Numbered from the stretch's first letter, positions 4 to 62,490 are shown. The stretch: 64,000 bases of DNA from an uncultured Candidatus Saccharibacteria bacterium (GCA_964600255.1 CAZRIX010000001.1:118542-182541), one strand, 5' to 3'. Translations and numbers: made by a program. The notes: a model not told the origin generated them from the sequence alone.

Positions 4-1719
4 ATGCATAAGAAAGTGGAGGATACGGTACCTGCACTAGCACCAGATGCTATAAGAATAATTCCTTTGGGTGGTGTAGAAGAGATTGGAAAGAACATGA
101 CTATGGTCGAATATGGAAATGATATCGTAATTATCGATATTGGTTTCCAATTCAAAGATGAGAATACACCAGGAATCGATTACATTCTACCTAATACAAA
201 GTATCTAGAAGAAAGAAAGGATAAAATTCGTGCAGTAATAATTACACACGGGCACTTGGATCACATAGGAGGTATTCCCTACGTAATGCCAAGAATCGGT
301 AATCCACCACTATATACCCGCATGCTCACATCAGTGATGGTGAAAAAGCGTCAGGAAGAATTCACACATGTTCCACCACTAGACATCAAGATTGTTGAAA
401 AGGATGAAACCATAACCTTGGGTTCACTGAAGGTGAAATTCTTTGCCGTAACTCACACAATACCAGATGCTATGGGAGTTGTTATACAAACACCTCATGG
501 TTCAATAGTACATACAGGTGACCTTAAACTTGATCACGTTGATGGAGTTCCTACAGAACCAGAGGTTGCTGAGTACGACCGTGTATTTAAAAACGAGAAG
601 GTGCTTCTACTTATGGCAGATTCTACAAATGTAGAGAATCCTGGCTTTTCTATTCCTGAAAAAACAGTTCACAAGAACATAGAGAACATAATTAGAGATA
701 CAAAGGGTCGTTTGATCATCGCCACATTCGCTTCCCTACTAGAAAGAATGTTGAAGATTATTGAGTACTCAGAGAAGTACGGTAAGAAGGTTGTCGTTGA
801 AGGTAGAAGCATGAAGACAAATATTGAAATTTGTATGAATCTTGGCCTACTTAAACCCAAGAAAGATACCCTTATCACAGTTGAACAAATCGATAGTTAT
901 CCACCAGACAAGATCGTCGTCCTAGCTACAGGTGCTCAAGGAGATGAATTCGCAGCTATGATGAGAATGTCCAACAAGACTCACAAGTACATCAAGATTA
1001 ACAAAAGAGATACTATTTTGCTTTCATCATCTATAGTTCCTGGAAACGAGAGAGCTGTGCAGAAATTGAAGGATAACCTTTCTAGACAGGGTGCAAGTAT
1101 TATCCACTACAGAATCGCTGACGTTCACTCATCTGGTCACGCCAATCACGATGAAACTGTGTGGATTCATAAAAAAGTTAATCCTAAGTTCTTTATTCCT
1201 GTTCACGGTTATCACTACATGCTACGCGTACACGGCGACATCGCTCGTGAAGCAAATGGCCTTTCTGAAGATAAGATTATCATCCCAGACAATGGTTCAG
1301 TTATAGAAATACAGAATGCAGGTGAAAAAATCGTAAAACTAAAGGAGAAAGCGCCTTCAGGTATCGTTATGGTGGATGGATTCTCAGTGGGAGATATTCA
1401 GGATGTAGTTATTCGTGATCGTCAGATGCTAGCTCAAGATGGAATCTTTATTGTATTTGCTATTATTGATTCAAGAACGGGCAAACTAAAGAAGTCACCA
1501 GACATCATCTCTCGTGGTTTCGTTTATCTACGTGAATCACAGGAACTTCTACACCACACTAGAATTATCATAAAGAATACTATCGAGGATTCAACAAAAG
1601 GAACAAATCCTCTAAATATAGACTTTGTTAAAACAAACATCAGTGACAATGTAAGTAAGTTCCTATTACAAAAAACTGCAAAGAGACCTATTGTTATACC
1701 TGTACTTCTAACTATATAA
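4..1719 (+). CDS. rnj: Ribonuclease J (metallo-beta-lactamase / beta-CASP RNase)
   Basis: 571-aa ORF with the HxHxDH zinc motif (ITHGHLDHIGG) and later D/H motifs typical of beta-CASP RNase J. Length is typical for RNase J. Confidence 0.88.
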   Translation: MHKKVEDTVPALAPDAIRIIPLGGVEEIGKNMTMVEYGNDIVIIDIGFQFKDENTPGIDYILPNTKYLEERKDKIRAVIITHGHLDHIGGIPYVMPRIGNPPLYTRMLTSVMVKKRQEEFTHVPPLDIKIVEKDETITLGSLKVKFFAVTHTIPDAMGVVIQTPHGSIVHTGDLKLDHVDGVPTEPEVAEYDRVFKNEKVLLLMADSTNVENPGFSIPEKTVHKNIENIIRDTKGRLIIATFASLLERMLKIIEYSEKYGKKVVVEGRSMKTNIEICMNLGLLKPKKDTLITVEQIDSYPPDKIVVLATGAQGDEFAAMMRMSNKTHKYIKINKRDTILLSSSIVPGNERAVQKLKDNLSRQGASIIHYRIADVHSSGHANHDETVWIHKKVNPKFFIPVHGYHYMLRVHGDIAREANGLSEDKIIIPDNGSVIEIQNAGEKIVKLKEKAPSGIVMVDGFSVGDIQDVVIRDRQMLAQDGIFIVFAIIDSRTGKLKKSPDIISRGFVYLRESQELLHHTRIIIKNTIEDSTKGTNPLNIDFVKTNISDNVSKFLLQKTAKRPIVIPVLLTI

Positions 1720-49861: not shown

Positions 49862-52489
49862 CTATTTACTATTAATATAAGACCGGGTAACTGGCCCAAA
49901 ATACCCTACTGCAGGTTTAATTCCATTTGCTTGTTGGAACTTTATCAGTGCCTTCTGTGTCAATGGACCAAAATAGTCAGTCTCCTTTCCAACAGATCCT
50001 GCGCCGACACTCGATATAGTATATCCCTGTGAATTTAGAAACTCTTGAAGCTTCTTTACATCTTTATGAATAGCTCCTTGTTGAAGTGACCGACTGAAAC
50101 TTAATCTTATATTTTGAGCACTTACCTTACTAGTATTTGGATTTACAGATAGACCATACTGGTTTATCAACTGGTACGCTTGAGAATTTTGTCCCATACT
50201 TAGTAGATTATTTACACGACTGATTACACTACCGGAACTGCGCGAACTAGAGTTATTATTCACCATTACTTGTATACCTGAATCTGCATAATTCCCCGCT
50301 CTATCTCGTGCTGTCGCTGTAATAGTATGTACACCATAACTTACTTGATTTGAATCTAAACTAACTGTATATGGACTTGTAAGAATTTCAGAACCGATAT
50401 TAATTCCATCAATCTTGAACTGTACACCAACCACGTCTGATCCACTATCTGTACTTACAGCTGTCAGTGATACCGCACTACCAGATATAACCGAACCACT
50501 CAGAGGTGTAGTTATAGAAACAGTAGGGGCAGTATTGTCCACATAAACCATAATAACTGAAGAGGTTGCAGTGTTTGAGTTACTATCAGTAACTAGTGCG
50601 TATATGCTGTAACTACCATTTGCTACTGTGGTTGTATCCCAAGTATATGTATATGTTTCTGCAGAGGTTGTTGATGTTAAAGGTGATCCGAGAGCTATAT
50701 TGTTTAAGTAAAATTGGACTGAACTAACACTAGCAGGGCTTGTGGCACTCGTAACTGCAATTAAGTTTGTTGACGAAGAAATGTATGCACTGTTGGTTGG
50801 ATTGGTGATTGTAACTGTAGGTGATGAGATGGTTCCGTATACGTATGCACCTACATCCCAATTTGCTCCATAACTATTTTGATCAGCAAGTAGAATACCT
50901 GATGGCCAAGAATTCAACGGTGCTAAAGCATACTTATATGTCGACCCCAAATTGGCTCCGGCATTTACTGCTGGTGAGGAAGATCTAAGTGTGTAATCAC
51001 CGGTACTAGTACTCGTCAATAATGGGTTCGTAAGTAATCCATTTGTGTCAAAACCAAGCGCCTTCCATTGAGAAAAGGTGTGATATGCACCATTGTAGAA
51101 TGGTGACGCTCTAGTAGATCCGAAGTAATGATTGTAGTCTGCGGTCAGTCCCCCTGTCGGTGTATTCATATAAAAGCCTGATCCTTCTGAAATAATCAGA
51201 TTATTCTTCATATCAGCAGTTGCACCTGAGGTGAGGTAAAGAAAATCCTGTGTTCCGGTCGTGTAATACGTATTATTATAAACTTTAATACCTGTGGCTG
51301 TGCTTGCCAATTTTACAGCTGGATTAGTGAACAACGTACCGTTTATTACGTTATTATAAAACTGTGATCCTGCTCCTGCGCCACTACTTGCCGTGTATGC
51401 TCCTGACCAACCTCCAGTGATGTAGTTTCGTCGCGCAATTATAGATGTTCCAGCATCAGCACTTTCAGCGACAGCATATTGTCCAGTATTACTAAACAGA
51501 CGTGTAGGTGCCGCAAAGTTAAACAGTGAGTCTTCGACTATATTTTCATAAGCACCACCATGGGTTTGGACACCAACTGCATTCCCAAATGTATCTAGAA
51601 CGTGCACACGCCTGAAAACATTTCCTGTTGAATAAACACTGTAGAACAAAAATGTTCCACCTGCATTGTTCTTTGCAAAAAGATCTACACCCAGATTGTT
51701 TGATCCATAGAAACTCAAGCTATGGTTGGCATTGTCATAGTAGTTACAATTTTTAACGACGATATTTGAACCATAAATAATCATAGCGGACATATTTGTA
51801 TAAGACCTTACAACATCCATATCTTGAAAAACCAACCAACTTGAAGATCGATCGAACTTATCCTTGACGATGTTTGCACGGCTTGATGCCTCGTATGTTA
51901 GTCCGTTAGTAAGTGGGTTTGGATCAGTGCTTGATGAATGGAGGTAGAAAAAGCGATTATTTGAGTCATAATATACTGTCCCTGGAGTTGAAGTTGCTAG
52001 GGCAAGTGAGCTCACAGTTCTGAGTAACACACCATTTTCCCACATGGCAGCACTTGGAGGTTGTGTACCCTCAATAGTGAGAGCAACATTGTACTTATAT
52101 GTATTGTTTGGACCGTCATATACGATGAAATTAGAATTATCAATTATGTCCGAACCGATAAAAACTGGGTTAGCACCTGACCCGTATTTACCGATTGTAA
52201 TTGGATTTCCACTTGTTCCAGAAGAAGGAAATGTCAGAGATTCACGCCATTCTCCGCCAGCCTTAAATAGTACATAGTCTCCTGGACTAAATGTTGAGTT
52301 GTTAACTTTAGAAACCGTTCTCCATGGTGTAGAAACAGACGTAGGGTCAACAGAAGAATCATTTCCAGCTATAGAATCGACATAATATGTTGCAGCATCA
52401 ACAGATGTGGCGCGCATAAAAAACACAAGAAACAACACAAAAACAGATCTATTGATACTTTTTCTAGTCAAACAATTCATTTTTAACAT
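49862..52489 (-). CDS. Secreted right-handed beta-helix protein with Ig-like domains and C-terminal peptidoglycan-binding domain
   Basis: N-terminal signal peptide. A long central region of N/G/S/T/Y-rich short repeats (beta-helix-like, with NxxG/YxN rungs). Repeated ~90-aa T/S/V-rich modules (VTITNPTNSAY..., VSITTPLSGSV...) look like Big/Ig-like domains. The last ~70 aa match PG_binding_1 (LQEFLNSQGYTISSVGAGSVGKETDYFGPLTQKALIKFQ). Confidence 0.7.
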   Translation of the reverse strand: MLKMNCLTRKSINRSVFVLFLVFFMRATSVDAATYYVDSIAGNDSSVDPTSVSTPWRTVSKVNNSTFSPGDYVLFKAGGEWRESLTFPSSGTSGNPITIGKYGSGANPVFIGSDIIDNSNFIVYDGPNNTYKYNVALTIEGTQPPSAAMWENGVLLRTVSSLALATSTPGTVYYDSNNRFFYLHSSSTDPNPLTNGLTYEASSRANIVKDKFDRSSSWLVFQDMDVVRSYTNMSAMIIYGSNIVVKNCNYYDNANHSLSFYGSNNLGVDLFAKNNAGGTFLFYSVYSTGNVFRRVHVLDTFGNAVGVQTHGGAYENIVEDSLFNFAAPTRLFSNTGQYAVAESADAGTSIIARRNYITGGWSGAYTASSGAGAGSQFYNNVINGTLFTNPAVKLASTATGIKVYNNTYYTTGTQDFLYLTSGATADMKNNLIISEGSGFYMNTPTGGLTADYNHYFGSTRASPFYNGAYHTFSQWKALGFDTNGLLTNPLLTSTSTGDYTLRSSSPAVNAGANLGSTYKYALAPLNSWPSGILLADQNSYGANWDVGAYVYGTISSPTVTITNPTNSAYISSSTNLIAVTSATSPASVSSVQFYLNNIALGSPLTSTTSAETYTYTWDTTTVANGSYSIYALVTDSNSNTATSSVIMVYVDNTAPTVSITTPLSGSVISGSAVSLTAVSTDSGSDVVGVQFKIDGINIGSEILTSPYTVSLDSNQVSYGVHTITATARDRAGNYADSGIQVMVNNNSSSRSSGSVISRVNNLLSMGQNSQAYQLINQYGLSVNPNTSKVSAQNIRLSFSRSLQQGAIHKDVKKLQEFLNSQGYTISSVGAGSVGKETDYFGPLTQKALIKFQQANGIKPAVGYFGPVTRSYINSK

Positions 52490-52609
52490 TCTTTATAAAA
52501 CTTAATATTATTCGGAATAATAATAGCACACTTTCTACTTACTCCACACCACATACATTCCAGGATAATATACTCCAAACTTAACCTTGATTGGTTTGTT
52601 AATTGATAA

Positions 52610-53653
52610 TTATTTACTGACCGACACTAATTCCACTTTATAAGTCACTGATTCTCCATCATCAACCAAAATCATTGGTTCCACTCCTGTAAACCAATAT
52701 CCCTCCGAAGTCTTAAAAGTTATTTTCCTTACACCACCAACTTTCATCCCAATAACCCCAAGTGCGTAAGAATCGTAGGACTCAATATTAGTATTCAAAT
52801 TTATTTTGAAATTTTTGAACATATTTGTAAGAGTGGGATTATTTGGCATTGTTGAACTGTCATAGGTTTTACCCTTTATATCTACACCCAGTACATTAAT
52901 AACAGCCTTTTCGTTATACCGCGCCAATTCCCCCGTACCAATCTTCACATCGACAATATTTTCTGACGGGAAGTACTGATAATTCGCAGATCCAGGAACT
53001 GCCTCGAGTGATGGATCCAGATTTACATTATTAGTCATTTCTTGTAAAACCCATTTATCATGTGTATTAGTCCAATCTTTTTTGCAATCATTCCTTCTAA
53101 CAAGATAAATATATGCATCACACTCATCAAGTGAATCAAACATGGCATTATTTTTATAAATAATTTTACCTTTTACAGATAGGTCATGATAATTCATGTA
53201 TATAACAGGACAAAGAATAAAGAAAAGTAAAGCTGCAACTACCGTTGAAACAGTTAATTTATCCGTCAGTGGCTTAGTGATATTAAACACAATCAGAGCA
53301 AAAATAAAAAGTATCAGTATACATACAAGTGTTGGAAAAAACGCCAAACCCCAAGGAACAAAGTATGCTGGAATAAAACAAGCCACAATATCAACAACAA
53401 TTAAAATTCCAGCAACTTTAAAAACTTGTTTATTAAATGAACTACTTAAACCCATCCATATTGAAATAATTACACTAGCGATAAAGTAAAATACATATGT
53501 TGCAAAATCGACATCAAAAAACTCAATAGCATGACCATCACTAGTATGAGAACGATAGTGGAAATAGAAGAAAGACACTAAAGAGTATATAAGTAGAAGT
53601 GCACACCCTCTTAAAATTGATAAAGGATTTGTGAATATTTTGTTATTTTCCAT
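52610..53653 (-). CDS. Hypothetical membrane protein with possible C-terminal FKBP-like domain
   Basis: ~5 TM segments then a soluble domain. KGKTYDSS and GMKVGGVRKITF...YKVELVSV weakly resemble FKBP PPIase motifs. First of three repeat-preceded genes next to the tRNA. Confidence 0.4.
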   Translation of the reverse strand: MENNKIFTNPLSILRGCALLLIYSLVSFFYFHYRSHTSDGHAIEFFDVDFATYVFYFIASVIISIWMGLSSSFNKQVFKVAGILIVVDIVACFIPAYFVPWGLAFFPTLVCILILFIFALIVFNITKPLTDKLTVSTVVAALLFFILCPVIYMNYHDLSVKGKIIYKNNAMFDSLDECDAYIYLVRRNDCKKDWTNTHDKWVLQEMTNNVNLDPSLEAVPGSANYQYFPSENIVDVKIGTGELARYNEKAVINVLGVDIKGKTYDSSTMPNNPTLTNMFKNFKINLNTNIESYDSYALGVIGMKVGGVRKITFKTSEGYWFTGVEPMILVDDGESVTYKVELVSVSK

Positions 53654-53748
53654 GGTACTGATTATATCCCACCATTATATTCCTGAATAGCCTGGTGTTT
53701 GTATGCATTTAACAAGAATAAACAACTAAATTAATAAAAGAAATTAAC

Positions 53749-53792
53749 TGGCGGAAAGAGCGCACTTAAGCGACTTTGCTAAGTCGAGATTC
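53749..53792 (-). repeat. R1: tRNA 3'-end-derived direct repeat (minus strand GAATCTCGACTTAGCAAAGTCGCTTAAGTGCGCTCTTTCCGCCA)
   Basis: Near-identical to R3 at 55157-55200. The terminal GCTCTTTCCGCCA equals the acceptor 3' strand plus CCA of the tRNA at 55336-55425. Confidence 0.7.
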
Positions 53793-53845
53793 TATGTTTA
53801 CATATAAGAACGAGATGTGTAGTTTGGAGTAAACCAAAGACTATA

Positions 53846-54526
53846 TCAAATATTTCTGGTAGAGAAATACCTTTTAACTTTTCTAATACCCACGATTAGA
53901 CTGATGGAGAATACAATAAAGATTGTAAGGAAACTTTCATTGTCAGATGAATTGTCAATATCAAACACGAGAGGAACGATAAGTGCCAATCCCCCTACAA
54001 ATAGAGTAGCCCAGAATCTAACTCTCAAAGAAGAGAGGAAGACTTTCATAGGATGACCTCCCTCTATAACTTGAGCTACCTCATAACTTGATCTAAAAGC
54101 TGGAAACCAGGTAGTCCATACACGGTCACTTACGTGATAATCTTCGGAATGCTGGAGCATTACAATTTTACTTCGATATATTTTTGCTAAGTATATATTC
54201 ACAATACCTGAAAGACTCCAACCAATAAAGATTAGAAATAACGTCGATAAAAATACAGCGTAGCCACCTGTCCCAGATATAATTGCAATAATCATTACCA
54301 AACTTGCTCCTGGGAAAAAACTTCCTATGAAATAGAGTCCCTCGATAAATACAGAAAGAAAGGCAGCCAAGTAAATATACTTTTCATCAATGTTTGAAAG
54401 AAAATCTACCAATTCCCCCATACCTGGAATCTCTGAGTTGAGAAAAAGTAGTACACCATATACCGCAAGAGCTGCTGCTGAGATAATCCAAATTATTCCT
54501 GCATATAGTTGATTCTTATTCTCCAT
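53846..54526 (-). CDS. Hypothetical polytopic membrane protein (possible VTT/DedA-like)
   Basis: 226 aa, 5-6 TM segments. FIEGLYFIGSFFPG resembles a DedA re-entrant loop motif. Confidence 0.4.
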   Translation of the reverse strand: MENKNQLYAGIIWIISAAALAVYGVLLFLNSEIPGMGELVDFLSNIDEKYIYLAAFLSVFIEGLYFIGSFFPGASLVMIIAIISGTGGYAVFLSTLFLIFIGWSLSGIVNIYLAKIYRSKIVMLQHSEDYHVSDRVWTTWFPAFRSSYEVAQVIEGGHPMKVFLSSLRVRFWATLFVGGLALIVPLVFDIDNSSDNESFLTIFIVFSISLIVGIRKVKRYFSTRNI

Positions 54527-54564
54527 TGCATAATTTTAACCTAAATCTAATAATTAAGACACAT

Positions 54565-54630
54565 TGCTCGACTCAGCATGCTGTCGCGAAAAGAGCACAT
54601 GTTAGTGACTCGTATAATGAATCTCGATTT
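54565..54630 (-). repeat. R2: diverged copy of the tRNA 3'-end-derived repeat plus shared palindromic box (GCTCGACTCAGCATGCTG)
   Basis: Shares the CAGCATGCTGAGTCGAGCA box with R3. The tRNA-like tail is degenerated (GTGCTCTTTTCGCGACA). Confidence 0.55.
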
Positions 54631-54654
54631 AGGTAATAACCACTACTCTATAAC

Positions 54655-55092
54655 TCACAAACTAAATAAGTAAATTGAGGTTGTCAAAATAAAAAGTATC
54701 AGCCATGTGTACACATACAATCTGTGGTACTTTTTTATCTGATTGCAATATTCAGTAACAAGAGAATCAGTACGGGCATTATCATTCACACCAAGAAAAA
54801 GGCTTTTTTCCATTTTAGTCCACGAAAAAGCAGTTAGAGGATTAAATGAAACTACCTTTGAATTAATTCCGTCTTTGATTAGTGCTGGTGACCATATATT
54901 AAACTTGAAACTATTTGGATAAAGTTTATTTACTCTCCTTCTAAATTTTAGCAGATGCAAGTTAAGCTGTATTATACATATTAAACCAAAAATAAAAAGT
55001 AGAGTGTAGATACCACCCCCAACAATAATAGTGATTGAAAACAAATCTAAAGACTGTATAAATGTGAGTATACTAGTAATCATAGTTAACAT
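54655..55092 (-). CDS. Hypothetical small membrane protein
   Basis: 145 aa with two TM segments at the N-terminus and one at the C-terminus. No motifs. Confidence 0.4.
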   Translation of the reverse strand: MLTMITSILTFIQSLDLFSITIIVGGGIYTLLFIFGLICIIQLNLHLLKFRRRVNKLYPNSFKFNIWSPALIKDGINSKVVSFNPLTAFSWTKMEKSLFLGVNDNARTDSLVTEYCNQIKKYHRLYVYTWLILFILTTSIYLFSL

Positions 55093-55156
55093 AATACAAC
55101 AGATAGTAACCTGAGGCTATAGCATCTCATCGAGACATGCTCGACTCAGCATACTG

Positions 55157-55200
55157 TGGCGGAAAGAGCGCACGTAAGCGACTTTGCTAAGTCGAGATTC
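55157..55200 (-). repeat. R3: tRNA 3'-end-derived direct repeat, contiguous with GC-rich element B
   Basis: TGGCGGAAAGAGCG + 23-nt insert + GAGATTCG mirrors the tRNA 3' end TGGCGGAAAGAGCGAGATTCGAACTCGC at 55336. Confidence 0.7.
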
Positions 55201-55300
55201 GGTCATAGGTCTTCGCCTGCTGGCTCAGCCTACGACCCTGCCTCCTTCGCCTTCGCTCAGTCCGGCTTTCTCATCTCGTCTTTCTTTGCAGTCAGACGCT
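55195..55300 (-). ncRNA. GC-rich conserved element B (about 85 nt core), candidate structured RNA or recombination arm. Paralogue of element A at 62251-62347
   Basis: The minus-strand core GAGATGAGAAAGCCGGA...GAGGC.GGGTCG...GAGCCAGCAGGCGA.GAC...TGACCGAATC is conserved between the two loci. It is GC-rich in an AT-rich genome and lies immediately 3' of a tRNA and a short hairpin. Confidence 0.45.
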
Positions 55301-55335
55301 CTGTTCAGAAGCCATTCAGGCTTCTTCACAGATCG

Positions 55336-55425
55336 TGGCGGAAAGAGCGAGATTCGAACTCGCGGTTCCAATTAAGGAACGGCGGTTTAGTAAACCGCTG
55401 GTTTAAACCACTCACCCATCTTTCC
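55336..55425 (-). tRNA. Class II (long variable arm) tRNA, Ser-type identity (G73), anticodon loop UUACUAA = nominal anticodon ACU. CCA encoded
   Basis: Manual fold: acceptor GGAAAGA/TCTTTCC, 3-bp D-stem with GG in the loop, anticodon stem GCGGT/ACCGC, variable stem GTTCC/GGAAC, T-arm GCGAG-TTCGAAT-CTCGC, then G-CCA. Confidence 0.7.
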
Positions 55426-62187: not shown

Positions 62188-62250
62188 ACTTTAATTATAA
62201 CCTGAACTTGGTAATTCATGTACTCGGGTCGCTTTTATGTCGTCCTACTT

Positions 62251-62347
62251 TGCGGAAACGGAGGGATTCGGTCACGAGTCCTCGCCTGCTGGCTCGGCTC
62301 TCGACCCCGCCTCGGACACCTTCGTGTCCTCCGGCTTTCTCATCTCC
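62251..62347 (-). ncRNA. GC-rich conserved element A with tRNA-Ser 3'-end mimic tail (paralogue of element B)
   Basis: The minus strand reads GGAGATGAGAAAGCCGGAGGACACGAAGGTGTCCGAGGCGGGGTCGAGAGCCGAGCCAGCAGGCGAGGACTCGTGACCGAATCCCTCCGTTTCCGCA. It is separated from the tRNA by the hairpin GTTGACC-TCG-GTCAAC. Confidence 0.45.
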
Positions 62348-62402
62348 ACACTTCCACAATATGCTCGATTCAGTTGACCGAGGTCAACTTCATCGATCAT
62401 TG

Positions 62403-62490
62403 CGGAACCGGAGGGATTCGAACCCTCGAGGCCTTTAAAGGGCCTGCCTCTTTAGCAAAGAGGTATGTTAGACCACTCCACCACGGTTCC
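62403..62490 (-). tRNA. tRNA-Ser (anticodon GCU), class II
   Basis: Manual fold: acceptor GGAACCG/CGGTTCC, anticodon arm CCTCT-TTGCTAA-AGAGG, long variable arm GGCC-CTTTAAA-GGCC, T-arm GAGGG-TTCGAAT-CCCTC, discriminator G. CCA not encoded. Confidence 0.85.

Follow-up and report, generated by a model that had tools for sequence, protein, structure and literature searches.

Two tRNA genes in a segment of a bacterial chromosome are each followed by a compact, G+C-rich sequence that ends in a likeness of the 3' end of the tRNA itself. A first-pass annotation of this DNA drew attention to both sequences and proposed that they might be the arm of a miniature integrative element, a tRNA-like RNA co-transcribed with the tRNA, or a processing signal. 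Which of these descriptions fits the two sequences, and how each came to match its own neighbour, was not clear.

Two tRNA-Ser genes carry the same downstream element

The window, by which we mean the whole stretch of 64,000 nucleotides that was analysed, is a bacterial chromosome segment with a G+C content of 34-42% and ordinary genes such as ung and those for a histidine kinase and a PilB-type ATPase. Two of its proteins have metagenomic sequences as nearest homologues, and the named ones belong to Paceibacteria, Parcubacteria or Patescibacteria. Only two tRNA genes were found in the window by ARAGORN and Rfam, both on the minus strand. Downstream of each of these tRNA-Ser genes, on the same strand, lies a G+C-rich stretch (0.59-0.65, versus 0.34-0.42 for the window), and the elevated G+C reported earlier is therefore borne out. 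The shared core that had been described for the two stretches is likewise real: the composite pattern GAGAAAGCCGG-N25-55-GCCAGCAGGC has exactly two matches in the window (55215-55272 and 62284-62341), where none is expected from 100 shuffles. A 17-mer and a 14-mer of the core are each identical between the two copies, here called A and B, and a covariance model built from relatives scored these copies at 76.8 and 73.7 bits, with the next window match at 16 bits.

On the tRNA strand, both window copies have the order tRNA, hairpin P0, X, AAA, hairpin H1, hairpin H2 and DR2. DR2 is a direct copy of the tRNA segment that runs from T-loop C56 to the 3' end (DR1 in the tRNA itself), and X is the reverse complement of the same segment. 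The inserted unit of the window copies measures about 150-180 nt, and its parts are as follows.

62402..62490, minus strand: tRNA-Ser(GCU) (ARAGORN; Rfam tRNA 56.2 bits)
62420-62402, minus strand: DR1 of copy A, the last 19 nt of tRNA-Ser(GCU) from C56, CGAATCCCTCCGGTTCCGC (sequence)
62358..62401, minus strand: P0 hairpin of copy A, AAUGAUCGAU-GAA-GUUGACC-UCG-GGUCAAC-UGA-AUCGAGCAUAUU (fold, z = -6.19)
62339..62357, minus strand: X of copy A, GUGGAAGUGUGGAGAUGAG, an imperfect reverse complement of the tRNA 3' segment (folds, family-wide X:DR2 pairing)
62271..62338, minus strand: conserved core of copy A (model R1 76.8 bits; covariation)
62336-62338, 62309-62335, 62306-62308 and 62271-62305, minus strand: AAA, H1, GGG and H2 of the copy A core, respectively
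62250..62270, minus strand: DR2 of copy A, CGAATCCCTCCGTTTCCGCAA (sequence; repeat analysis)
55336..55425, minus strand: tRNA-Ser(ACU) (ARAGORN; Rfam tRNA 56.4 bits)
55356-55336, minus strand: DR1 of copy B, CGAATCTCGCTCTTTCCGCCA (within tRNA-Ser(ACU))
55299..55335, minus strand: P0 hairpin of copy B, ..CUGU-GAA-GAAGCC-UGAAU-GGCUUC-UGA-ACAG.. (sequence)
55270..55285, minus strand: X of copy B, AGAAAGACGAGAUGAG (pairing with tail)
55202..55269, minus strand: conserved core of copy B (model R1 73.7 bits)
55267-55269, 55240-55266 and 55202-55236, minus strand: AAA, H1 and H2 of the copy B core, respectively
55157..55201, minus strand: DR2 of copy B in two pieces, CGAATCTCG at 55193-55201 and CGCTCTTTCCGCCA at 55157-55170 (sequence, fold)
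55171-55192, minus strand: 22-nt inserted hairpin of copy B (GACUU-AGCA-AAGUC), which splits DR2 (fold)
55127..55156, minus strand: native tRNA trailer, CAGTATGCTGAGTCGAGCATGTCTCGATGA, displaced beyond copy B (24/30 identity to L241)

The spacer hairpins previously seen between tRNA and element are present at both loci. P0 of copy A begins at the first base past tRNA-Ser(GCU) and has a purine-rich internal loop, and P0 of copy B shows the same GAA/UGA internal-loop layout. In copy A, H1 has the form GCC-GGA-stem-GAAG-stem-GA-GGC and H2 the form GUCG...GA-GCC-AGCA-GGC-GA...A-bulge...UGAC, while X and DR2 provide the 5' and 3' strands of a closing helix, P1. X of copy B is complementary to two parts of its tail, UCUUUC(C) and CGAAUC, the latter through tandem G.A pairs. 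This tail-complementary segment 5' of the core was missing from the first-pass annotation. Single-strand folding compared with shuffled controls gave z = -5.2 for A, z = -3.0 for B and z = -6.2 for A with its spacer. A promoter-like site, found as a consensus match, lies upstream of tRNA-Ser(ACU) at 55462-55434.

The tails of both copies do mimic the 3' end of their own neighbour. In copy A, the tail CGAATCCCTCCGTTTCCGCAA corresponds to the tRNA-Ser(GCU) 3' end CGAATCCCTCCGGTTCCGCAA and reaches from C56 to two bases beyond the ARAGORN-called end with 1 mismatch; in copy B, the tail consists of CGAATCTCG, the 22-nt inserted hairpin and CGCTCTTTCCGCCA, as compared with CGAATCTCGCTCTTTCCGCCA of tRNA-Ser(ACU). 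The description of the tail as a mimic of the tRNA 3' end thus holds as regards the repeat and needs to be widened as regards its extent, since the repeat starts already at C56 in the T-loop, beyond the acceptor end. Similarly, element B had been placed at 55195-55335, a range that loses most of the tail, as copy B extends to 55157.

The element is widespread among Patescibacteria and sits behind many different tRNAs

A search for further copies, which had been suggested for this element, brought the total to at least 132, all of them in Patescibacteria where the source was named. A scan of species-representative genomes gave 119 pattern matches, of which 7 were real; the remainder were chance matches in G+C-rich genomes, for example in a conserved Pseudomonas gene. 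Six of the 7 real genome copies come from records labelled Saccharibacteria, Parcubacteria, Nomurabacteria or Patescibacteria, and one from an unclassified uncultured bacterium. Each of the 7 is closely preceded by a same-strand tRNA (Ser, Ala, Trp or Leu), whose 3' segment is repeated in the tail. A metagenome scan, with the pattern anchored on other invariant positions, yielded at least 120 loci. All copies were recovered by core-derived patterns, and conservation at those positions is partly ascertainment.

Among the matches listed, 100 copies had a same-strand tRNA 20-185 nt upstream, with 29 anticodons represented (most commonly Trp, 16, Ser-GCU, 10, and Glu-CUC, 9). Those listed without a called tRNA included three behind tmRNA and several behind tRNA-like 3' ends that ARAGORN missed, and a further copy behind tmRNA is found at L143. 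The earlier association with class II tRNAs, and with tRNA-Ser in particular, must therefore be given up: an element found behind 29 anticodons and tmRNA has no such specificity. In copies beside a tRNA, X and DR2 match that local tRNA. Repeats have a mode of 19-22 nt and extend from C56 to the end of the tRNA or up to a few bases further, and direct repeats of 19-25 nt (C56 to the 3' end) flank both window copies and most of about 100 loci. Family-wide, the inserted unit is non-coding and about 110-190 nt long. Departures from this layout include a copy that adjoins no tRNA (L161), one located 1.1 kb away from the tRNA matched by its X (L135) and one that lacks DR2 (L218).

When applied to the window, the covariance model found only the two copies; on the fetched contigs it found more, up to five on one contig (L218). 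A copy was present at 46 of the 106 tRNA/tmRNA genes on these contigs, each of which had been chosen for at least one copy, and among the other tRNAs there the carrier fraction is low. Tandem arrangements also occur, with a perfect tandem at L238 and two copies behind one tmRNA at L227, and one copy lies between a tRNA-Phe 5' fragment and an intact tRNA-Phe gene.

A three-way junction is conserved on the tRNA-sense strand

The first-pass annotation had also suspected a structured element, for which compensatory changes would be expected. These were found, both in the covariation analysis and by RNAalifold, and already a comparison of copies A and B revealed compensatory differences in H1 and H2. 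An alignment of 112 distinct copies gave a consensus three-way junction, formed by H1 and H2 and closed by P1 (X:DR2). H1 consists of GCC, GGA, a variable stem and loop, GA and GGC, after which GGG precedes H2. In H2, GUCG and a stem of 4 bp lead to a variable stem whose loop is of the ANYA type, followed by a bulged A and UGAC; the 3' strand of H2 abuts DR2 directly. The junction nucleotides are highly conserved and the stems are variable.

Standard pairs filled 84.8% of cells in the alignment, as compared with 35-44% when partners were slid by 1-3 columns, and the covariation score was 0.445, as compared with 0.08-0.10 for the slid controls. Changes on both sides were seen in 24 of 34 pairs, and H2 was 94% paired. 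From the alignment alone, RNAalifold recovered H1 and H2 with 19 pairs, 13 of them with compensatory changes. The closing helix is shorter and less regular. When counted without gaps, P1 is reliable over ~8-9 bp and variable further on, with about 30-40% pairing past 9 bp; its proximal 7 bp (columns 4-10 with 92-98) form in 71-96% of copies. P1 of copy A has 7 + 5 bp with a 2-nt bulge, and CCA occurs in some family tails only. The P1 pair opposite T-loop position 59 was AU in 33 copies, UA in 32, CG in 9 and GC in 8. Since all four Watson-Crick forms are used at this position, X tracks the neighbouring tRNA.

The two strands are not equivalent. The pair G58:U88 is invariant (112/112 copies), and in H1 and H2 together G:U/U:G pairs number 85, versus 15 for A:C/C:A. 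Both observations indicate that the folded strand is the tRNA-sense strand, which also folds better than the antisense strand, by 9-14 kcal/mol. Tandem G.A mismatches recur in H1, H2 and P0, and also in P1 of the window subtype, where GAUGAG lies opposite CGAAUC. Taken together with this strand-specific fold, they argue that selection acts on a single-stranded, tRNA-sense form, which could be RNA or single-stranded DNA.

Empty sites define the ends of the inserted unit

A relative of the window lineage, represented by L241, carries a neighbouring FAD oxidase that is 91% identical, the same promoter region and the same tRNA-Ser(ACU), without the element. Here, the tRNA is joined directly to CAACATGCTGAGTCGAGTATATATCGGTGA, which matches the window sequence that follows DR2 of copy B (24/30) and not the sequence that follows the tRNA. 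L241 thus represents a precise empty site: it lacks the 179 nt (55335 to 55157) that the window lineage contains. The element is also absent from L242, in which the neighbouring protein is 87% identical. Presence is equally sporadic at the RecG/tRNA-Ser(GCU) locus: by RecG identity, the element is present at 94% and 75% and absent at 79%, and at 77% another core occupies the same tRNA-hairpin-X-core-repeat layout. In this locus comparison, L251 lacks the element. Deletion between direct repeats could also produce an empty site.

These comparisons bear on two of the earlier proposals. The idea of a miniature integrative arm at tRNA-Ser genes survives in part, as the precise empty site and the tandems speak for a small inserted unit; what falls away, along with the tRNA-Ser specificity, is the arm of a larger island, because the whole inserted unit is about 150-180 nt and has no linked integrase. 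A general tRNA processing signal is unlikely, since the element is carried by some tRNAs only and is absent in close relatives.

The spacer is shared between loci and the arms are fitted to each tRNA

P0 starts at the first base past the tRNA, and X, which opens with the complement of the final tRNA bases, adjoins P0 directly, so that DR1, P0 and X make one continuous hairpin. In many lineages, P0 resembles an intrinsic terminator, with an A-tract, a G+C hairpin and a T-tract. The hairpin of the window type has a purine-rich internal loop and lacks a T-tract, and a consensus scan detected no terminator-like site between tRNA and element in the window copies. The terminator-like hairpin that precedes many copies argues against strong transcription, and other copies, including the window type, have no terminator.

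The P0 type AATGAT...ATCATTGCG, to which the spacer of copy A belongs, follows Trp and Ser(GCU/CGA/ACU) tRNAs, and a close variant (AAATGAT) follows a Met tRNA; across P0, L189 (Met) shares about 85% identity with L202 (Ser). At loci that share P0, X and DR2 differ, each matching the local tRNA, so that the arm is fitted to each target. The window P0 is unrelated to the native trailer of the empty site. Because P0 is unlike the native trailer and one P0 type is common to different tRNAs, P0 and the core belong to the inserted unit.

In four loci (L143, L159, L208 and L210), the repeat continues for 30-57 nt into a copy of P0. At tRNA genes that do not encode CCA, DR2 has CCA in 9 of 46 cases. 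The mature tRNA was rejected as a general template for DR2, given that the other 37 of these 46 genes have no CCA tail and usually show the same genomic bases. A reading of X as a degenerate tRNA 5' half was rejected as well, since X complements the T-loop and the 3' strand of the T-stem too.

Neither a known RNA family nor a linked mobility gene accounts for the element

A check against Rfam, which had been recommended, assigned the element to no family: at the gathering score of Rfam 15, only the two tRNAs match, and at E <= 10 nothing relevant was found over the elements, the best match being tmRNA_permuted at 11.3 bits (gathering 47; E = 4). By eye, the hammerhead (GAUGAG...GAAA), the hairpin ribozyme, the RNase P P4 strand (GAGGAAAGUCCGG-like), the SRP domain IV motif, group II domain 5 and K-turns do not fit. 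The hammerhead-like GAUGAG is not conserved: in its place most copies show GAUUCG, a plain complement of CGAAUC.

No recombinase, transposase or reverse-transcriptase domain was present in the scanned ORFs adjoining the window copies. Among 1094 ORFs within 4 kb of the element at about 125 loci, the largest clusters contained no linked mobility gene and reflected housekeeping synteny only, with the largest cluster present in 8 loci. From reading their sequences, we take these clusters to be MiaA (the largest, 8 loci), Ddl, TsaD, RecG, ParB and ComF. The neighbouring ORFs showed no consistent downstream gene or expression platform. A megablast search against phage records gave no match, and two scans of viral contigs returned chance matches in coding DNA only and no true copy. 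Full-text literature searches found no published description of the element. The closest publication concerns only group I introns in tRNAs of Patescibacteria and reports that the phylum has no group II introns (PMC13011429).

A small insertion element is the favoured explanation

The intact tRNA or tmRNA gene, the fragment that starts in the T-loop, the exact empty sites, the tandems and the covarying fold together favour a non-autonomous insertion element. We put at about 0.5 the probability that these sequences are selfish, non-autonomous insertion elements, about 110-190 nt in size, which form a family resident at tRNA/tmRNA gene 3' ends in Patescibacteria. The architecture, the fold and its strand specificity, the distribution, the precise presence and absence, the tandems and the lack of a linked mobility gene are direct observations. 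It counts against an insertion element that no integrase, transposase or reverse transcriptase is linked to the copies and that the scans of viral contigs found none of them.

The inserted unit has the order a - P0 - a' - core - a, in which a denotes the part of the host tRNA between C56 and its 3' end. The tRNA gene is left intact, and a second 3' segment and the native trailer lie on the far side, as with tRNA-targeting islands. The form under selection is the tRNA-sense three-way junction closed by P1 (a':a), which is a duplex replica of the target. If the element is mobile, and not only lost, this fold may be recognised by a trans-acting recombination or copying machinery, and the folded intermediate may be either a read-through RNA from the tRNA or single-stranded DNA. 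Attachment sites in the T-loop are known (PMC1762012). A simple crossover within the T-loop would leave the tRNA with the element's own 3' end and would not by itself account for the existence of a'. Such a crossover cannot explain how one lineage of P0 and core comes to lie at many tRNAs, and we therefore infer that the arms are rewritten. The match between a' and the distal a might be maintained by templated copying across the two hairpins (quasi-palindrome template switching), alongside which selection for P1 would act.

The main rival is a cellular, tRNA-linked structured RNA that is transcribed with the tRNA or just after it, a reading that we regard as rather doubtful. Its closing helix would mimic the acceptor and T arms and let RNase P, RNase Z and the CCA-adding enzyme process an RNA of ~100-130 nt, which would serve as a decoy, scaffold or regulator; copies would arise by local duplication and be lost by repeat recombination. 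Covariation, G:U wobble, tandem G.A pairs and strand specificity all suit RNA, as do peripheral hairpins that vary about a fixed core, as in many functional RNAs. The consensus matches that place a promoter-like site upstream of the tRNA and no terminator after it in the window copies, and the CCA at 9 of 46 CCA-less genes, are what such an RNA would lead one to expect. A cellular RNA accords poorly with an element that is multi-copy, sporadic, attached to different tRNAs by lineage, absent at the same tRNA in close relatives and sometimes in tandem. Moreover, a terminator-like hairpin precedes most copies that are not of the window type, and P1 is often poorly paired past 8-9 bp, so that a 12-bp minihelix is probably not general. 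The same spacer and core at unrelated tRNAs, with re-matched arms, would require an insertion process in any case. It is quite improbable that the element is instead a riboswitch-like cis regulator of tRNA maturation, in which binding of a ligand or protein at the junction would stabilise P1, and in which a', when P1 is unformed, would invade the tRNA 3' half and block its folding. Highly conserved junction nucleotides amid variable stems, and the capacity of X to pair equally with DR1 or DR2, are compatible with such a switch. The alternative partner, however, lies upstream inside a tRNA that has already folded, close relatives can do without the element at the same tRNA, tandems occur, as do copies that lack a tRNA (L161) or DR2 (L218), and there is no similarity to an Rfam riboswitch.

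A self-templating element, of a fold-back or retro type, would arise if a polymerase, once past the tRNA and its hairpin, turned back and used the tRNA 3' segment as template for a'; the core would be added next, and copy-back along a' would make the distal a, so that the arms would fit any tRNA. The continuous DR1-P0-X hairpin, the H2 3' strand that abuts DR2 and the arms that fit 29 different tRNAs (among the matches listed) around a shared P0 and core all agree with this scheme, as do the repeats that run on into a P0 copy (L143, L159, L208 and L210, 30-57 nt), which could equally be tandem copies. We consider the scheme unlikely: it was fitted to the data, no reverse transcriptase or polymerase is linked to the element, and most CCA-less genes carry genomic bases rather than CCA in both repeats, which makes the mature tRNA unlikely as the template. 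Finally, the sequences might be scars of tRNA-integrated genomic islands that were mostly deleted afterwards. An intact tRNA gene, regenerated on integration, with a displaced fragment marks the ends of islands (PMC4383910), and an intact tRNA with a displaced 3' fragment is what is seen here. Yet the same ~70-nt core lies beside the fragment at >100 independent loci, its stems show compensatory changes and island genes are absent. Random deletion cannot give such a pattern, and the present data contradict this explanation, which we find hardly credible.

We tentatively raise the possibility of a new class of CPR mobile element whose target specificity is borne by pairing, or else of a junction that is a new small ribozyme or guide scaffold. 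In the former case, copy-back across the element's own hairpins would renew the arms a' and a on the template of each new tRNA, and the element would move as a rod-like single strand (P0 - P1 - core), possibly circular and possibly RNA. In the latter case, the conserved three-way junction would act at the GAC|CGA boundary, itself a mimic of the T-loop.

Significance of the element

Patescibacteria have tiny genomes with little spare DNA, yet the element has at least 132 copies at the ends of essential tRNA/tmRNA genes. If it is mobile, it would be the smallest known unit to use the tRNA-gene integration strategy, and its inverted replica of the target, re-matched to many tRNAs, would point to an undescribed recombination or copying mechanism. 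If it is a cellular RNA, it would represent a new, widespread class of tRNA-linked RNA in a poorly understood phylum. In practical terms, the element will mislead programs that detect islands by tRNA fragments and will also disturb the annotation of tRNAs and screens for intergenic RNAs in CPR genomes, and it offers a ready marker of gain and loss at the strain level.

Comparison with known systems

Several classes of small or structured sequences share some features with the element. Among the tRNA-like stable RNAs are the phage T4 species 1 and 2 RNAs, mascRNA and the viral tRNA-like 3' structures. As with the element, such RNAs lie beside tRNA genes on the same strand; they have a terminal helix of the acceptor/T type, sometimes with CCA, which P1 may imitate. 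The helix of the element, in contrast, copies the sequence of the neighbouring tRNA, its interior is not tRNA-like, and it is multi-copy and optional. MITEs, REP/BIME and PATE are, like the element, small, multi-copy, non-coding, structured, intergenic and variably present. Unlike a MITE, the element has no terminal inverted repeats of its own, its only inverted repeat being that of X with the tRNA-derived repeat; it duplicates 19-22 nt of a functional gene segment rather than a short fixed target, and no related autonomous element or transposase was found in the neighbouring ORFs. As regards retron ncRNA, no reverse transcriptase adjoins any element copy in the neighbouring ORFs examined.

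A closer structural parallel is provided by integron attC sites and the attP(+) site of CTX phage, which are used by XerCD in the latter case. In these sites, as in the element, a target-like sequence and its inverted copy, tens of nucleotides apart, fold into a duplex replica of the target, structure is conserved over stem sequence and the fold is strand-specific. When a folded single-stranded attachment site integrates, as with CTX phage, the resulting order is a ... a' - spacer - a, which is also that of the element. The element differs in that its target is the T-loop/3' end of a tRNA and not dif or attI, no GTTRRRY or dif-like site being present at its junction GUGAC|CGAAUC. Furthermore, its loop is a conserved three-way junction and it carries no phage genome or cassette.

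Islands and prophages that target tRNA genes (tyrosine integrase systems, Islander-type islands, mycobacteriophage Ms6) likewise use the 3' part of tRNA/tmRNA genes. Shared features are the intact gene and the direct-orientation, displaced 3' fragment at the far end and, for islands of the T-loop sublocation, the repeat from the T-loop to the 3' end, empty sites and tandem insertion. Unlike these islands, the element is only 110-190 nt long, is without integrase or cargo, and combines an inverted copy of the target with a covarying, strand-specific three-way junction; a single lineage of spacer and core is found at many tRNAs, with arms matched to each. There is a substantial chance that the element extends the strategy of insertion at tRNA genes by a mechanism of a new kind.

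Sites and cores

Two loci from other genomes depart from the usual site or core of the element, the folded unit that lies 3' of a tRNA.

L218, about 700-960, plus strand: core copy at tRNA-Phe
L253, about 1130-1320, minus strand: unit with a different core

In L218, the core copy was flanked by an intact tRNA-Phe and by a duplicated 5' fragment of it, which covered positions 1 to about 39 and ended in the anticodon loop. Apparently, the element family can also occupy a sublocation in the anticodon loop, in which case it is the 5' portion of the tRNA that is duplicated. At the orthologous RecG/tRNA-Ser(GCU) site in L253, the layout of tRNA, hairpin, X (the reverse complement of the tRNA 3' portion), core and repeat was kept, and the core differed (AAAAGUCUGAGCAUAUCGCACGGAGCGUAGCGAGUACGGUGCGAAGACUAUACCGAAUC). 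This core was not detected by the covariance model of the element core. The L253 unit thus suggests that there is a wider superfamily in which cores are exchangeable.

Additional hairpins and the trailer

Extra hairpins recurred inside or directly before X in many loci.

L142, L207, L219 and L228, among others: accessory hairpins inside X
L135, L147, L161 and L215: further examples of accessory hairpins
55171-55192, minus strand: insert in the tail of copy B, the element 3' of tRNA-Ser(ACU), a 22-nt hairpin (GACUU-AGCA-AAGUC)
55127-55156, minus strand, also 3' of the tRNA in L241 and 3' of the distal repeat in L013: trailer motif resembling CAGTATGCTGAGTCGAGCATGTCTCGATGA

One hairpin associated with X had a AACUGCUU-type loop (GCAAACUGCUUUGC), a second had a CUGGGAG loop, and a third was found in the tail (CGAAAGCGUACUCGCGGUUCC). 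These accessory hairpins of X and the tail are modular additions. A 25-nt insert was present in the tail of L247, a close relative of copy A, and the distal repeats of copy B and L247 were split at nearly identical points, between CGAATCC and CTCCGGTTCCGC. Secondary insertions may favor this junction, or an additional hairpin may simply be tolerated there.

The CAGTATGCTGAGTCGAGCATGTCTCGATGA-like trailer was conserved 3' of tRNA-Ser ends across different loci and genomes. It can form a small hairpin and may serve natively as a signal for processing or termination.

Neighboring genes

49862-55092: variable region from an RDD-family gene to the tRNA-Ser(ACU) trailer, compared with L241 1444-2259
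61242-61781, minus strand: ORF downstream of copy A, weak HEPN AbiU2 match (21.7 bits, below the cut-off of 26.8)

The region directly past copy B varied between the window and L241, the relative with a 91%-identical neighboring protein. In the window, this region spanned about 5.2 kb and held four ORFs on the minus strand, of 875, 347, 226 and 145 aa, most of which matched no family; L241 had one short-chain dehydrogenase gene there.

tRNA-Ser(ACU)

55336-55425, minus strand: tRNA-Ser(ACU), A at position 34
L241 2342-2431, L242 2343-2430, L028 291-378, and L229: tRNA-Ser(ACU) in other loci

Several Patescibacteria keep tRNA-Ser(ACU) in addition to the usual tRNA-Ser(GCU). In bacteria, A34 is normally found in tRNA-Arg(ACG) alone. 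Its presence in tRNA-Ser(ACU) raises the questions of whether the base undergoes deamination to inosine and which of the AGN codons this tRNA reads.
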